A program made the position numbers and the translations under genes. From Escherichia phage EAWsc9, in sequence record PQ341120.1: a DNA stretch of 64,000 bases; one strand, given 5' to 3'. Numbering within the stretch: the stretch's first letter is position 1; every line of letters starts with the position of its first letter. This document shows, piece after piece, positions 1,167 to 59,437 of the stretch. The notes below the pieces were generated by a model that saw only the letters and a program-made list of their open reading frames with translations, ran no database searches and was not told the origin of the DNA.

Positions 1167-1670
1167 TTAGTTAATACCTTGGCGTGCTTTCTCTTTAGCT
1201 ACACATTTATTAATATAGCTCAGACGGTTTTGAGCAGAACGCTGATACATATCGCGATACTCATTAGCTTTTGGAGAACCCGTCTCTGCTGCCTGATAAG
1301 CTTCCGCGCGCATGATGTTTATCTGCATATTGATGTATGACATGCAGACCTGTGAAATCTGGTTAACAGTATCCAGGTCATTTTGGCGCTTGGTTTCTGC
1401 TTCCAGTTTAGCAATGATTTCGTCATGCTTCGCAGCTTGTTCGCGTTTGTACTCAATTTCACGTTGAGCATATTTCGCGCAGTTATTTCCACATTGATTG
1501 TTGTCGCGTTTGTAGATAAGTCCAGTACCACCTTTGAAATCAAAGGAACCATTATGCACCTGACGGTCTGCAGCAATTCGCGCTTTACCAATCTCACTGG
1601 CATTAACTACATCACCCTGATAAGCACAACCAGATAGCAGCATAACAGCTGCGATAGCTAACTTTTTCAT
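1167..1670 (-). CDS. Predicted lipoprotein (signal peptide + lipobox LLSGC)
   Basis: ORF-track ORF 1167..1697 trimmed to internal ATG at 1670 preceded by GAGGA; product starts MKKLAIAAVMLLSGCAYQG. Confidence 0.6.
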   Translation of the reverse strand: MKKLAIAAVMLLSGCAYQGDVVNASEIGKARIAADRQVHNGSFDFKGGTGLIYKRDNNQCGNNCAKYAQREIEYKREQAAKHDEIIAKLEAETKRQNDLDTVNQISQVCMSYINMQINIMRAEAYQAAETGSPKANEYRDMYQRSAQNRLSYINKCVAKEKARQGIN

Positions 1671-1820
1671 TGTATTTTCCTCAATTAAAACATTCATAGC
1701 GGGCTTGGAGCCCCAAAAATACCCAACCCAAAATTAAAGTTGGAATCATATGCGGAGTCATTATTGCCCAATAGATTGACATACTAAAAAATGCAATCAG
1801 TACAATAATTGTAATTATCT

Positions 1821-15720: not shown

Positions 15721-15751
15721 TATGTTTTCCTCATCATTAGTTGATGGGATA

Positions 15752-15781
15752 ATGATACACCGTTCAAAGGGGCTTGTACAC
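15752..15781 (-). promoter_or_regulatory. Early sigma70-type promoter (GTGTAC-18-TATCAT) overlapping a hairpin
   Basis: Minus strand aaaaggggtGTGTACaagccccttt...TATCAT then conserved leader tcccatcaac. Confidence 0.4.
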
Positions 15782-30521: not shown

Positions 30522-30546
30522 GTTCTCCTCAGTAGTTGATGGGATA

Positions 30547-30576
30547 ATAGTACACCCTTTTTATGAGGATGTAAAC
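30547..30576 (-). promoter_or_regulatory. Early sigma70-type promoter (GTTTAC-18-TACTAT)
   Basis: Followed by conserved leader tcccatcaactactgaggag. Confidence 0.4.
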
Positions 30577-36425: not shown

Positions 36426-36686
36426 TTACGCTTTACCGCCGGAAACAATACCAAAGGTCTCAAAGTCCCATTCAATATCATCAACATCAACTTTCTTACC
36501 AGCAACCACGAATGCGATTTCGCGACGTTTTGCATAGGTGACAATTTCTTTACCATCACCACCAAAGAAAGAATAACCATTGCGCTTCATGGTGCCAAAG
36601 TCTTCAGCATCGCCAGCAAAGGCGCGAACTTTAAAAGCACCAGTAGGAGCTTTGGCTTCTGTGATAAATTCTTGATAAGTTTTCAT
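36426..36686 (-). CDS. Internal protein (IP-type, capsid-targeting N-terminus)
   Basis: Start set to internal ATG giving MKTYQEFITEAKAP...; T4 IP capsid-targeting consensus MKTYQEFIAEA; own early promoter upstream. Confidence 0.7.
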   Translation of the reverse strand: MKTYQEFITEAKAPTGAFKVRAFAGDAEDFGTMKRNGYSFFGGDGKEIVTYAKRREIAFVVAGKKVDVDDIEWDFETFGIVSGGKA

Positions 36687-47706: not shown

Positions 47707-47783
47707 TGGTCGGGGTGGTGGGATTCTAACCCACAACCTACGGTTTAGAAGACCGTTGCTCTATACAATTGAGCTACACCCCG
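47707..47783 (-). tRNA. tRNA-Arg (anticodon UCU)
   Basis: Hand-folded cloverleaf: acceptor 7 bp, D stem gctc/gagc, anticodon stem acggt/accgt with loop cuUCUaa, T stem gtggg/cccac, encoded CCA; unusual D-loop and T-loop (U19/A56). Confidence 0.7.
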
Positions 47784-47859
47784 GGTGGCCCCATCCGGAC
47801 TTGAACCGGAAACCTGCCAGTTATGAGCCGGATGCTCTAACCAATTGAGCTACAGGGCC
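47784..47859 (-). tRNA. tRNA with anticodon CAU (Met or lysidine-modified Ile)
   Basis: Hand-folded cloverleaf: acceptor ggccctg/tggggcc, D-loop aattggtta, anticodon loop cuCAUaa, T arm tccgg-ttcaagt-ccgga; 3' end encodes CC only; abuts tRNA-Arg. Confidence 0.7.
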
Positions 47860-49118: not shown

Positions 49119-49304
49119 TTACTCACCTTTGGAGATTTTATCCATAACGAAAGAGATTGAACCAATTAAAAATGCAACTACTAAAGAGATTATATTCTCA
49201 GAAGTTGAAAGCATATTCAACATAAAGCCAGCAAACATGCTAAAACCAAAAGCGGTAACAGCAACAAGGGCAGTAACATTTCTAATTAATTCGCAACGTT
49301 TCAT
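49119..49304 (-). CDS. Hypothetical small membrane protein
   Basis: 61 aa with two hydrophobic helices; conserved leader with GAGGAG. Confidence 0.5.
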   Translation of the reverse strand: MKRCELIRNVTALVAVTAFGFSMFAGFMLNMLSTSENIISLVVAFLIGSISFVMDKISKGE

Positions 49305-49332
49305 TTTATTCTCCTCAGTAGTTGATGGGATA

Positions 49333-49361
49333 ATTATACGCTATCCCATTCAAAAGTACAC
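49333..49361 (-). promoter_or_regulatory. Early promoter (GTGTAC-17-TATAAT)
   Basis: Minus strand GTGTACttttgaatgggatagcgTATAAT then leader tatcccatcaactactgaggag. Confidence 0.45.
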
Positions 49362-49616
49362 TTATTTTTTAGGGATACGATAGTAACGCATCTCAACATC
49401 TTTCTGCTTGTGCCACTTTTTGATAAGGTCTTCAGAACCTTTAATGGTAACGATGTCATAGCGACCATCATGCGATACTTCAGCACTTAACTGCATGAAG
49501 TTGTCTAGTGAACGGCGCAATTCCTCATTAGAAAAACTACCACGCGGGGAACCAACATAAGCAAACTCAACTTTTGCATCTGCGGCTTCGTTAATAAATT
49601 CTTGATAAGTTTTCAT
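49362..49616 (-). CDS. Internal protein (IP-type)
   Basis: 84 aa; N-terminus MKTYQEFINEAADAK matches T4 IP capsid-targeting sequence. Confidence 0.7.
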   Translation of the reverse strand: MKTYQEFINEAADAKVEFAYVGSPRGSFSNEELRRSLDNFMQLSAEVSHDGRYDIVTIKGSEDLIKKWHKQKDVEMRYYRIPKK

Positions 49617-49641
49617 GTTGTCTCCAGTAGTTGATGGGATA

Positions 49642-49671
49642 ATTATACTGCAGTTATCCCATCGCGTATAC
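49642..49671 (-). promoter_or_regulatory. Early promoter (GTATAC-18-TATAAT)
   Basis: Same cassette as 49333..49361. Confidence 0.45.
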
Positions 49672-49672
49672 T

Positions 49673-49915
49673 TTATTTTAAGTCTTCCAGACGTTTTTTC
49701 ATCTTGGTGCCATTCTTAGCAATTTCGCCAGCATCAGAACAAAGAGCGAGGAGAGCTTTAACTTTACCCTGGTCGCCTTTAAAAGATGATGCATCTACAG
49801 AATCAGCAAGTTCTTTGATACGTGCAAACAGGCGCTCTGCTTCAGCAAGGGCTTGGCCAAGTTTAACTTCCATACCATGGGAAGATTCTGTTATAAATGT
49901 TTGATAAGTTTTCAT
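49673..49915 (-). CDS. Internal protein (IP-type)
   Basis: Start set to internal ATG giving MKTYQTFITESSHG...; GGAGAcaacATG. Confidence 0.65.
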   Translation of the reverse strand: MKTYQTFITESSHGMEVKLGQALAEAERLFARIKELADSVDASSFKGDQGKVKALLALCSDAGEIAKNGTKMKKRLEDLK

Positions 49916-49960
49916 GTTGTCTCCAAGCCATAAAAAGGGGATAATTATCCCCATTTGTTA

Positions 49961-50260
49961 TTACATCTTACTACCACGAATTACGCCATAAGCGGCGAAG
50001 TCGTCAGTGATATTTTTAGGGGTGTTCTTACCAGTTTCAATGAAGGCAATGCTTGATTTCTGACTAAAAGAGGTAATTTTGTTATAGTTAGAGTCAAGGA
50101 AGGTATAACCATTTTTACGCAACTGGTCAAAGTCTTCAGCGTCGCCTTTACCTTTGAAGTCAACCCATTTGTAGGTGTTTTTCTTCTGAAGGCCCAGAGG
50201 CCAGGTTTTTGCTTCTGCTAGGTAATTGTTTTCTACCAAAAATTCATGAAAAGTTTGCAT
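49961..50260 (-). CDS. Internal protein (IP-type)
   Basis: 99 aa; N-terminus MQTFHEFLVEN; shares GDAEDF...NGY motif with 36426..36686. Confidence 0.65.
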   Translation of the reverse strand: MQTFHEFLVENNYLAEAKTWPLGLQKKNTYKWVDFKGKGDAEDFDQLRKNGYTFLDSNYNKITSFSQKSSIAFIETGKNTPKNITDDFAAYGVIRGSKM

Positions 50261-50268
50261 TTGAAATC

Positions 50269-50541
50269 CTATTTTAAATAAATTGCATATTTTTTATAAC
50301 CAGCCGTCTCATGACGGAGACCCTTGTCATTGGCAAAACGCTCAATGTTATTAATTTGGTTCTGGTCAAGTTCTGAAATGTCAAACGCGAAAAAGTTGCG
50401 TTTGTTGCCAATTGTTATATGGTCAGTTAAGTCAATGCTATACAGGTGATTGATATTGTCAATCATAGCTTTGACCGCTTTACTAATTTTTACTTCTTCA
50501 TTCAGTTGTGACTCGTTGAAAAATTCATTGAAAGTTTTCAT
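50269..50541 (-). CDS. Internal protein (IP-type)
   Basis: 90 aa; N-terminus MKTFNEFFNES. Confidence 0.65.
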   Translation of the reverse strand: MKTFNEFFNESQLNEEVKISKAVKAMIDNINHLYSIDLTDHITIGNKRNFFAFDISELDQNQINNIERFANDKGLRHETAGYKKYAIYLK

Positions 50542-50549
50542 AAGAAACC

Positions 50550-50882
50550 TTATTTATAAAGTTTTGCCAGTTCTTTACGTCCGCGAGCAGACATAATAAA
50601 TTGTTCATCGCCAATTTTAAAATAAGCCATACCGCCGTCAACAGCGATACCAATTTCTTTAGTACCTTCTTTGCCTTTCCACTTGCCACCAGATTTCAGG
50701 ACAGCTTCAACTGCAGCTTTGGAATATTTGGACGTTTGAAAACGTTCATTACCAATCTGAAAGAAAACACCATCTGCATTTTTGGTTAAACCAAATTTCA
50801 GAGAGCCTTCACTATCATCAATTGATTTGGTCTCATTGATGGCGGATTCGGCTAAAAACTCGTTGTAAGTTTTGATGTTCAT
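50550..50882 (-). CDS. Internal protein (IP-type)
   Basis: 110 aa; N-terminus MNIKTYNEFLAES. Confidence 0.65.
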   Translation of the reverse strand: MNIKTYNEFLAESAINETKSIDDSEGSLKFGLTKNADGVFFQIGNERFQTSKYSKAAVEAVLKSGGKWKGKEGTKEIGIAVDGGMAYFKIGDEQFIMSARGRKELAKLYK

Positions 50883-50946
50883 ATTAACTCCGTTTGTTCA
50901 TTCGTTGGTGTAGGAACATAATACTGTACCTACACTTATTTGTACA

Positions 50947-51637
<691 letters not shown>

Positions 51638-51638
<1 letters not shown>

Positions 51639-52315
51639 TATATTACCTTATTAATTTTATCAAAAAGTTCTTCGAGTGTGCCATTGTTTTTAATAACAAT
51701 GTCACTAGCTAGTGGTGGAAGTCCAGCTTCCGTAATGTGTGTATCGGTAGAATGATTTGCTTCATCGCGTTCTACAAAGATTATTGTAGCACCCATCGCC
51801 CGAAGCGAATCAAGTTCGTTCTTTTGACGAACATCTGGGACAACGTAATATTTATATCCAGAATAGAGGTTGTCAAGATAATCGCACGCAAAAGTTTTAA
51901 TCCAAAACATGCTGTCGAACTCTGTACAAACGATGTCAGTTCCAAGGGTCTGCATGAAACGTCTAACTGTCCAGGGCTCAACATTATTTAGTGTGTGAAA
52001 TTCAATGATTTTACGAACCATATCTGGATTCGGAAGGTCAAGATTGTATTGTTGTTTCAACCATTCAAGAGCATCAACCAGAAGAATATAAGCTTCGGTG
52101 TTGTTCATTATCAAGGTTTTTTCACGGTCATAACCTTGTCCATCAAAATTTTCCAGGGTCAAATTGTGTGGCAGGTCTTGACGAATCCACGCTTTATAAA
52201 GCGCTTCTTTAATCGGACCTGCAAGCTGCCACTTTGTTCCGTTTTGACTAATAACATAATCAGCAGTCGTATCTTTACCACTGCGTTTTTTGCCCACAAT
52301 CGCAATTAATTTCAT
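51638..52315 (-). CDS. 1: Deoxynucleoside monophosphate kinase gp1
   Basis: 225 aa; P-loop GKKRSGKDTTADYV; colinear with T4 gp1. Confidence 0.92.
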
Positions 52316-57490: not shown

Positions 57491-59437
57491 ATGGTTACTC
57501 CTACGAATTACCAATTAACAAGAACCGTTAACGCTATCCCAAAAGTATTTGTGGGAGCTACGTTTGAAGAAATTAAAAAGAATATCATCGACTGGTTATC
57601 AAGCCAGGATGAATTTAAGGATTATGATTTCGTAGGTTCGCGAATGAATATCCTGATTGACATGCTTGCATATAATACATTGTATATGCAGCAGTTTGCT
57701 AACACGGCGGTTTACGAATCATTTATCGGAACTGCAAACTTAAGGTCTTCAGTTGTTCAGGCTGCACAGGATAATGGTTATCTTCCATCTTCTCGCTCAG
57801 CTGCAAAGACTTCGGTTATGTTGACATGTTCTCATGCTCTGCAACCATCGAATATTGAAATCCCACGAGGAACTAAATTCCTGGCCTATGCTCGTGATAC
57901 ATCAGCTGACCCTTATGTTTTTGTTACCACGGAAAACGTTATCGCGGTTAAAGATATTAACAACCAATATCTTCCGATTGTATCTCTGGCGCAGGGTCGT
58001 ATTATTCGTACAGAACTTTTATATGACCCGAAACAACCTATTCTTATCCGCGACCCGGATATTGACCGCAAAGAAGTTAAGTTATATGTGAATGGTGTTG
58101 AGTGGGATGACTGGACGAACAAATCAATGGTTCATGCTGGTTCGACTTCCACCATATTTTATATGCGTGAAACAATCGATGGCTATACCGAATTTTTCTT
58201 TGGTGAAGGTGAATCCACCAAATCTGTGGCCGGTGGCGTTATGGAAGCCAACTATATTGGCGGTCTTAAACCCGTGCAAGATTCAACAATTGTTATTGAG
58301 TATCTTCGTACTTCCGGGGCAGATGCAAACGGCGCTGTCGATTTCAGTTATGCTGATACGTTGTCTTATATCACAGTGGATAAGATTACTGAAAACTACA
58401 ATAATGACCCTGATTATGTCGGTGCTGATGGTGGTGGTGACCCAGAAGATATCGAACGTATCCGTGAACTGGCTGTTGTTAAACGTGAAGCGCAGATGCG
58501 TGCTGTCACCGGAACAGATTATGATACCTTCGTATCCGAAAGATTTGGCTCAATCGTGCAAGCTGTGCAGACGTTTACAGACGCTAATAAACCCGGGTAT
58601 GCGTTTATATCAGTTAAGCCTAAATCGGGCTTGTATCTCACTGCAGTGCAGCGTGAGGACATCCAGAACTACCTTAGCGAGTTCAACGTATCAACAATTA
58701 CACCATCGGTAATTTCTCCGGATTATTTGTTCCTTAAACATAATATCAAAGTGTCTTATGCGCTGAACAAATTGCAAGAATCTGAACAATGGTTGCAAGC
58801 ACAAATCATTAATCAGATTGACCGTTATTATATTGATGAAGTTGAAATCTTTAACAGAAGTTTTGCTAAGTCAAAAATGCTTACATACGTGGATAATACC
58901 GACCATAGTATTCTTGGTTCGTCTGCAACCATTTCGATGGTGCGTGAGGTCCTGAACTTCTTTAAGACTCCGGAATCCGGCATTAAATACTATAACCAGT
59001 ATGGCAACCGTTCAGTCGAATCAAGCGAATTTGAATTTGTTCCGACTACGGGTGAAGCCTATAACGTTCGCATTGTTGCAACTGATAAAGATTCTCGTGG
59101 TGATGGCAAAATGGTAATTGGTCCATTCCGTCCGGGTGATGTTATCGAAAACGTAAACATCCAGCCTTACCTACAAGATGACTTTAATAAAATGGAAGCT
59201 CCGGCTGACCAAACAGTTTATTACGCAATTGGCGAAATTGACTATTACTCTGACTATATTTTTTGGGATATCGCCGCGATTGGATTGACCTCCGAGCGCT
59301 TTGAAGTTCAATCAATCGAACTTTATGCAAGTCCCAACCAAGATAATATATACACGCAAGATGGTTCACTGATTGTATTTGAGAATGACCTTCGTCCGCA
59401 ATATACAAAGATTGACCTTGAACCGATTACACTATAA
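57491..59437 (+). CDS. 6: Baseplate wedge protein gp6
   Basis: 648 aa in conserved 53-5-6-7-8 order. Confidence 0.9.
   Translation: MVTPTNYQLTRTVNAIPKVFVGATFEEIKKNIIDWLSSQDEFKDYDFVGSRMNILIDMLAYNTLYMQQFANTAVYESFIGTANLRSSVVQAAQDNGYLPSSRSAAKTSVMLTCSHALQPSNIEIPRGTKFLAYARDTSADPYVFVTTENVIAVKDINNQYLPIVSLAQGRIIRTELLYDPKQPILIRDPDIDRKEVKLYVNGVEWDDWTNKSMVHAGSTSTIFYMRETIDGYTEFFFGEGESTKSVAGGVMEANYIGGLKPVQDSTIVIEYLRTSGADANGAVDFSYADTLSYITVDKITENYNNDPDYVGADGGGDPEDIERIRELAVVKREAQMRAVTGTDYDTFVSERFGSIVQAVQTFTDANKPGYAFISVKPKSGLYLTAVQREDIQNYLSEFNVSTITPSVISPDYLFLKHNIKVSYALNKLQESEQWLQAQIINQIDRYYIDEVEIFNRSFAKSKMLTYVDNTDHSILGSSATISMVREVLNFFKTPESGIKYYNQYGNRSVESSEFEFVPTTGEAYNVRIVATDKDSRGDGKMVIGPFRPGDVIENVNIQPYLQDDFNKMEAPADQTVYYAIGEIDYYSDYIFWDIAAIGLTSERFEVQSIELYASPNQDNIYTQDGSLIVFENDLRPQYTKIDLEPITL

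Follow-up and report, generated by a model that had tools for sequence, protein, structure and literature searches.

That diverse injected proteins which counter host defences may have only a capsid-targeting sequence (CTS) in common has been published (Repoila 1994; Rao & Black 2010; Silas 2025); the idea dates from 1994, with an experimental extension in 2025. In phage T4, the internal proteins (IPs) IPII and IPIII start with MKTYQEFIAE/A (here and below, a slash before the last residue marks the cleavage site, a predicted one in the case of the window), a leader in which mutational work assigns targeting mainly to residues 4 and 7 and processing to residues 8 and 10 (PMC9026906). The gp21 protease recognizes the motif L/I-x-E (PMC9026906), and the CTS peptide suffices to package foreign proteins (PMC3012670; PMC9026906). 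The T4 proteins Ip1, Ip2 and Ip3 are inhibitors of a different GmrSD type IV restriction enzyme each, with no cross-protection, and at least ten Ip families have been recognized by their leader (Silas 2025; PMC12373910); the IP locus has been termed a hotspot of injected anti-defence proteins (PMC12373910; PMC3012670). Here we analyse a stretch of 64,000 nucleotides (nt) from Escherichia phage EAWsc9 (PQ341120.1), referred to at its full length as the window, in which five adjacent genes at positions 49362–50882 form an array that is, judged by its sequence, a polymorphic internal-protein locus of a T4-like phage. The array adds members to the published concept rather than a concept of its own. 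Its five products are probably packaged, processed and injected IPs, while the chances that they target specifically type IV restriction enzymes are about even.

All five minus-strand open reading frames (ORFs) and N termini claimed in a preliminary description of this DNA were confirmed, coordinates included. In the direction of transcription, the array consists of member 5 (50550–50882; 110 amino acids (aa); leader MNIKTYNEFLAE/S), member 4 (50269–50541; 90 aa; MKTFNEFFNE/S), member 3 (49961–50260; 99 aa; MQTFHEFLVE/N), member 2 (49673–49915; 80 aa; MKTYQTFITE/S) and member 1 (49362–49616; 84 aa; MKTYQEFINE/A). The mechanical ORF of member 2 extends to 49954, and it is the ATG at 49915 that yields the leader; this start follows the same ribosome-binding site (RBS) as that of member 1, GGAGACAAC-ATG, and agrees with the ip5 annotation of Escherichia phage ECML-359. 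The leaders match those of T4 IPII and IPIII at the functionally mapped residues, in line with their earlier identification as a T4-type CTS: a Y or F at position 4 and an F at position 7 are present in all five, with the positions shifted by two residues in member 5, and the (L/I)-x-E motif occurs as INE in member 1, ITE in member 2, LVE in member 3 and LAE in member 5. A search for the strict leader motif [KQ]T[YF]x[ETDQ]F[ILVF]xE in the six-frame translation of the window returned six matches, against none in 100 shuffles; five are the starts of the array genes and the sixth belongs to an additional IP gene at 36426–36686 (minus strand).

In a set of 5.8 billion proteins, every homologue recovered for members 3 and 5 carries the leader, and leaders can be switched inside one body family, as seen in the exchange of MQTFHEFLVE for MKTYQEFINE. 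The predicted mature forms measure 70–98 aa (7.5–10.7 kDa; pI 6.8–9.3), the same size class as T4 IPI* with its 76 aa. Phage VR7, a member of the same genus, encodes gp20/67/68/21/22/23, among them the prohead core and protease proteins on which the leader depends (gp22, gp67, gp68 and gp21); the genes for these, which count among the core genes of T4-related phages (PMC9026906), lie outside the present window.

Past the leader, the bodies proved to be unrelated, as had been proposed. No pair was found by blastp at E ≤ 1e-3, and hhalign probabilities stayed below 1% for every pair of leader-trimmed family alignments, in a comparison that included T4 IPI, IPII and IPIII. Four of the five members match PHROG families of internal head or virion proteins, among them PHROG 2667 (internal head protein) for member 3 (E = 6e-21), PHROG 3499 (internal head protein) for member 2 and PHROG 8111 (internal virion protein) for member 1, while the family of member 5, PHROG 3966, is labelled 'unknown function'. 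All five body families are already in the databases. Member 2 is Ip5 (494 phage records; 90% identity to the ip5 product of phage PP01), member 4 is Ip9 (84% identical to RB15 Ip9, Q38376), and member 1 is a diverged allele of the Ip6 family (36 records; 47% aa identity to VR7 Ip6); member 3 belongs with VR7 ORF154c and RB69 ORF125c, and member 5 with VR7 gp156. A series of diverse IPs sharing the CTS, Ip4 to Ip10, was reportedly described by Repoila in 1994, as relayed by the papers that cite that work. A literature search on the function of Ip5, Ip6 and Ip9 returned unrelated papers only, and no proteomic study of a Gaprivervirus was found among the papers searched.

Two apparent relationships were discarded. 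A weak match of member 1 to PHROG 2667 (residues 1–66) was lost on trimming of the leader, and an exhaustive profile search with the member-3 family retrieved, in addition to genuine small relatives with a CTS, proteins of 450–1716 aa with 5–11 matched stretches each, which are summed weak matches; Pfam assigns these large proteins to unrelated repeat proteins (SprB, Listeria-Bacteroides repeat, TIG, Big_9). Sequence searches of PDB and Pfam with members 3 and 5 gave nothing significant. We also observed a 194-aa, two-domain relative of the member-3 family, in which the leader has diverged (MKSFDQYIME) and about 100 aa are added at the C terminus, showing that more than one domain can follow a CTS.

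The source phage is, on nucleotide similarity, T4-like and of the genus Gaprivervirus (Tevenvirinae), the window sharing 98.6% identity with Escherichia phage ECML-359 and about 93% with VR7. The array occupies the T4 ipI slot, flanked by 57B upstream and trna.4 downstream, and the T4 synteny gene 1 – 57A – 57B – ipI – trna.4 – trna.3 is kept: gene 1 (51638–52315), 57A and 57B (50947–51402) are followed by the five IP genes, trna.4 (49119–49304) and trna.3. Thus the leader residues, the ipI locus, the PHROG and Ip families and the VR7 core genes all support the earlier description of these genes as a set of capsid-targeted IPs. Near-identical genomes are already largely annotated at this locus, GenBank naming member 2 ip5 and member 4 ip9; the VR7 gene at the place of member 1 is ip6.

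The content of the locus varies widely among relatives. Anchored on 57B, 31 loci were found to carry between zero and five CTS genes each, drawn from about 17 body families, and the five-gene array described here is the largest in this sample, equalled only by VR7. The VR7 array reads member 5, Ip9, member 3, ORF153c and Ip6, as compared with member 5, Ip9, member 3, Ip5 and the Ip6 variant in the window; VR25 resembles VR7 minus the fourth gene, and VR26 has Ip5 and lacks member 3. DNA homology to VR7, VR25 and VR26 stops 30–47 nt into the leader and restarts at the stop codon or at a promoter cassette. Between member 1 and VR7 ip6, for example, the promoter, 5' untranslated region (UTR) and leader are near-identical, as is the sequence from the stop codon on, with a body of 47% identity in between. 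Common cassettes are conserved to the same degree as the flanking genes (93–95% at the nt level). The conservation of shared cassettes and the placement of breakpoints at two joints therefore indicate that diversity arises by cassette replacement and not by rapid point mutation. Accordingly, the preliminary description of a diversifying set holds in that the bodies vary between relatives, but the variation proceeds by replacement of cassettes and alleles rather than by fast point mutation. Ip5 shares 90% identity in its body with Tequatrovirus phages such as PP01, and the adjacent 57B is only 72–83% identical to its more distant homologues, of undetermined genus, in the IMG/VR sample; the Ip5 cassette may have been transferred recently and laterally between genera.

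The second of these joints coincides with a repeated promoter-like element. The pattern GT[AG]TAC-N17/18-TAT[AT]AT matches seven times in the window, always on the coding strand, against 0.22 matches expected. One early-type site (GTGTAC-N18-TATTAT; 50918–50947, minus strand) heads the array before member 5; a hairpin at about 50908–50935 that overlaps its -10 hexamer is weak (-13.1 kcal/mol, z = -1.4). Before member 1, a cassette at 49633–49671 (minus strand) combines GTATAC-N18-TATAAT (49671–49642) with the stem GGGATAA/TTATCCC (about 49633–49663; -13.4 kcal/mol, z = -3.8), which encloses the -10 region, and the cassette runs on into a conserved 5' UTR and Shine-Dalgarno sequence. A second such cassette (49326–49361, minus strand) comprises GTGTAC-N17-TATAAT (49361–49333) and a stem at about 49326–49348 (-11.9 kcal/mol, z = -2.9). 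Both of the early promoters that had been placed inside the array were thus recovered at their exact coordinates and fit a supported pattern, but the one at 49333–49361 borders the array on its 3' side, where the gene that it precedes is trna.4 and not one for an IP. A generic TTGACA/TATAAT scan did not flag either of them, whereas the phage-specific -35 pattern did.

In all, the window contains the promoter-hairpin cassette four times, where no copy would be expected, and it is a dispersed regulatory cassette. Two copies lie far from the array (15735–15758 and 30530–30553, minus strand), with the form ...TATCCCATCAACTA[AC]TG and the -10 variants TATCAT and TACTAT. At the junction of members 2 and 3 there is a terminator-like hairpin instead of a promoter: the perfect palindrome GGGGATAATTATCCCC followed by TTTTTA (49937–49952, minus strand) looks like a decayed copy of the cassette. 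PeSL elements, each an early promoter plus a stem-loop, flank accessory genes and mediate shuffling (PMC2839356; PMC4122927), and promoter and terminator activity and the formation of mini-circles are among their experimental properties (PMC2839356). The cassettes match these published elements in sequence pattern. As in the PeSL elements of Arbiol 2010 and Comeau 2014, a sigma-70-like early promoter with a stem-loop is repeated in variable regions and flanks small accessory genes, and here the cassettes coincide with replacement breakpoints between close relatives. They differ in that the -35 element is GT[AG]TAC, in that the -10 hexamer lies within the stem GGGATA(A)/(T)TATCCC, which in the published elements stands beside the promoter, and in that the other recombination joint of this array is leader-coding sequence.

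In the mechanism we propose, the first 10–12 residues of each protein would act as a CTS that attaches the protein to the scaffolding core during prohead assembly. The gp21 protease would cut the leader off after (L/I)-x-E, leaving free proteins of 70–98 residues inside the head, and these mature proteins would leave the head together with the DNA, so that they reach the host ahead of all phage gene expression. The T4 proteins Ip1, Ip2 and Ip3 suggest, by analogy, that each of them most likely binds a single host defence protein, one that would attack the incoming DNA, and blocks it. The repertoire would vary by whole-cassette replacement through homologous recombination at two conserved joints, formed by the RBS and leader-coding stretch at the 5' end and by the dispersed promoter-hairpin element at the 3' end.

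One of the bodies is also found outside this setting. The siphovirus vB_EcoS_UTEC10 (Kagunavirus; PP291582.1, 6488–6706) encodes a 72-aa homologue of the Ip9 body (51% identity, E = 5e-30) that aligns to Ip9 residues 19–90 and has no leader, with an in-frame stop 15 codons before its start; its gene seems to open an operon divergent from the replication genes. The leaderless body occurs in 12 genomes of 43–45 kb, at least three of them labelled Kagunavirus and one of them the BASEL phage Bas70. It follows that the Ip9 body is a module that stands on its own, to which the leader is an add-on. Some records call the leaderless homologue an 'internal head protein' through annotation transfer, a label that is probably wrong for a phage without a T4 prohead core.

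The body of member 5 contains an internal duplication of about 40 aa, and its structure model (pLDDT 58) tentatively suggests a Pur/Whirly-like fold, a type in which two beta-beta-beta-beta-alpha repeats make up a single domain. None of the seven member-5 family proteins examined matched PUR-type Pfam families at E ≤ 10, and no PDB sequence match was found; a BFVD search with the model gave a significant match only to its own homologue. The start of this gene differs from that of its relatives: at 50874–50882 (minus strand) it reads ATG AAC ATC AAA (MNIK...) as compared with ATG AAA (MK...). Where the ancestral start was there is now an ATC codon, and translation begins at a new ATG two codons before it, so that the leader is displaced by two residues.

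Packaging, cleavage, injection and an anti-defence role are what we infer for the five proteins, and several observations count against them. The x-E cleavage site of the preliminary description, a match at the level of the motif, stands in its canonical form for members 1, 2, 3 and 5, but member 4 has F rather than L or I at position 8 (FNE at residues 8–10) and a canonical LNE at residues 13–15. The leader of member 5, MNI-KTYNEFLAE, is offset by two residues, and some member-3 alleles have L at leader position 4. The late-promoter motif TATAAATA occurs at chance frequency (six observed against 5.4 expected), with one copy over the member-5 stop codon and one within gene 1, so that the only statistically supported promoters are of the early type and expression during head assembly is therefore only assumed. 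The presence of the Ip9 body without a leader in siphovirus-sized phages implies that injection is not intrinsic to its function. Finally, the bodies show no homology to Ip1, Ip2 or Ip3: blastp clustering leaves the T4 IPs as singletons, and the hhalign probability is below 1%.

One alternative is that the shared start is a DNA-level cassette for translation initiation or recombination, with products that are unpackaged, cytoplasmic early proteins. The early-type promoters at the array, the 88% identity of members 1 and 2 over the RBS and first 40 nt, and the leaderless Ip9 homologue in siphovirus-sized phages would all fit such a cassette. Yet members 3 and 5, whose DNA is only 63–65% identical to that of member 1 over the same stretch, keep T3, an aromatic residue at position 4, F7, a hydrophobic residue at position 8 and E10, and these are the residues mapped for targeting and processing (PMC9026906). 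The same peptide is sufficient for packaging of foreign proteins in T4, and the leader is confined to proteins of T4-like phages and absent from the small-phage copy, as expected of a role in the T4 prohead core; we consider this explanation very improbable. Less remote, though still improbable, is a mainly structural role, in which the IPs are basic, DNA-associated head fillers or assembly helpers, as holds in part for T4 IPIII, and their diversity reflects weak constraint and not an arms race. Each T4 IP is present in roughly 300 copies and binds DNA at low salt, and head assembly is slowed in IPIII mutants (PMC9026906). Of the six mature proteins predicted in the window, the additional IP gene included, four are mildly basic (pI 8.8–9.3), but the other two are near neutral (pI 6.5 and 6.8). 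Weak constraint would lead one to expect drift, whereas shared cassettes are conserved like the flanking essential genes (93–95% nt) and Ip5 is 90% identical between genera. Replacement of whole bodies and a gene number of zero to five per locus are unlike a needed structural component, and T4 can do without its IP genes on laboratory hosts but needs each of them against one specific restriction enzyme (PMC12373910; PMC9026906). Packaged and injected anti-defence proteins thus remain our preferred reading.

What such proteins would act on is less certain, and the chemistry of the phage DNA bears on it. Gaprivervirus is reported to lack known genes for hydroxymethylcytosine (hmC) and for sugar transferases while keeping alc, denB and dCTPase (PMC8056088; PMC12115623). 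In agreement with these reports of a genus without the hmC pathway, neither beta-gt nor gene 42 (dCMP hydroxymethylase), which T4 carries between uvsX and imm, is found in the corresponding interval of the window, and their place is taken by an ORF for a 176-aa predicted lipoprotein (1167–1697, minus strand; signal peptide plus Cys). A NAR 2026 paper on glycosylated 5-hydroxycytosine was set aside as not being about Gaprivervirus. T4-type GmrSD targets directed at glucosyl-hmC may thus not apply here, which weighs against extending the T4 case without change; in a genus without hmC that carries six IPs unrelated to Ip1–3, the targets may therefore differ from the glucosyl-hmC-directed enzymes countered by T4.

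We accordingly give substantial, though minority, weight to the alternative that the IPs are packaged and injected but act on something other than type IV, GmrSD-like enzymes, either on different early defences or on functions of the host; examples would be nucleases that read another DNA modification, single-stranded DNA or RNA sensors, and host takeover factors. The lack of any body related to Ip1–3 has been taken to favour it, but the three T4 IPs with known targets all inhibit GmrSD although they are mutually unrelated, and unrelated sequence is therefore no argument against the same target class. Similarly, the missing hmC pathway points to other targets, whereas the retention of alc, denB and dCTPase implies a cytosine modification open to a type IV enzyme. 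The possible Pur/Whirly-like fold of member 5, typical of single-stranded nucleic acid binders, and its internal repeat would suit this alternative, but the fold comes from a model of pLDDT 58 with no sequence support. In addition, the neighbour Acb1 acts on the cyclic-oligonucleotide-based anti-phage signalling system (CBASS) and not on restriction, and the Ip9 body serves small siphovirus-sized phages as an ordinary gene. These small phages are not known to have T-even-type DNA.

Compared with described systems, the array is closest to the T4-type IP locus, with which it shares a leader near-identical to that of IPII and IPIII, the (L/I)-x-E motif and unrelated bodies behind one leader; it differs in having five tandem genes where T4 has one, no Ip1–3 orthologue and a genus without hmC. 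It occupies the same hotspot as the GmrSD inhibitors Ip1, Ip2 and Ip3 (Bair 2007; Silas 2025), and delivery with the DNA is presumably the same, but there is no sequence or profile similarity to them and the modification recognized by GmrSD is probably absent from this genus. Like anti-CRISPR and other anti-defence islands, it clusters unrelated small proteins, there inhibitors, that are swapped beside a conserved anchor, here 57B/Acb1; unlike in those islands, the products share an N-terminal tag, so that they would be delivered pre-made within the virion.

That anchor, 57B (50947–51402, minus strand), matches the Pfam family Acb1, an anti-CBASS phosphodiesterase (E = 1.2e-59), and the IP array therefore directly adjoins another anti-defence gene; the records of relatives label 57B 'RNA ligase' or 'hypothetical'. 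On the downstream side, the trna.4 homologue (minus strand) encodes a 61-aa membrane protein. Further on, a tRNA-Arg(tct) and a tRNA-Met(cat) lie adjacent to each other at 47707–47859 (minus strand), at the site of the eight-tRNA cluster of T4.

The sixth IP gene (36426–36686, minus strand), which was not in the earlier list and has no coding sequence at its place in the ECML-359 feature table, encodes 86 aa starting with MKTYQEFITE/A. It is a paralogue of member 3 (30% identity, E = 7e-16), has its own promoter-like site (36746–36717) and lies beside denV and the lysozyme gene e, surroundings that correspond to the T4 ipII/ipIII neighbourhood. In VR25, a diverged ip5 copy is found at 58965–59171, well outside the VR25 array (near 70 kb) and possibly at this second IP locus; the two loci may have body families in common.

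The leaderless occurrence of Ip9, the duplication and tentative fold of member 5 and the setting in a genus without hmC may, with modest support, be new. They also allow a wider proposal, which we regard as unlikely as a whole: that the six IPs form a 'time-zero' arsenal outside the glucosyl-hmC/GmrSD pairing, that the CTS serves generally as a tag for injection, which recombination can attach to early anti-defence genes that otherwise stand alone, Ip9 being an example caught in the act, and that member 5, with a Pur/Whirly-like fold, enters the cell along with the genome and binds single-stranded nucleic acid there. The window provides a defined test set of six candidate IPs in this genus, which is of practical value, and the Ip9 body with and without its tag offers a direct test case for the benefit of pre-packaging. 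Injected IPs act before phage gene expression and thereby decide whether a T4-like phage survives the first nuclease attack, with relevance for host range and for the choice of phages for therapy.

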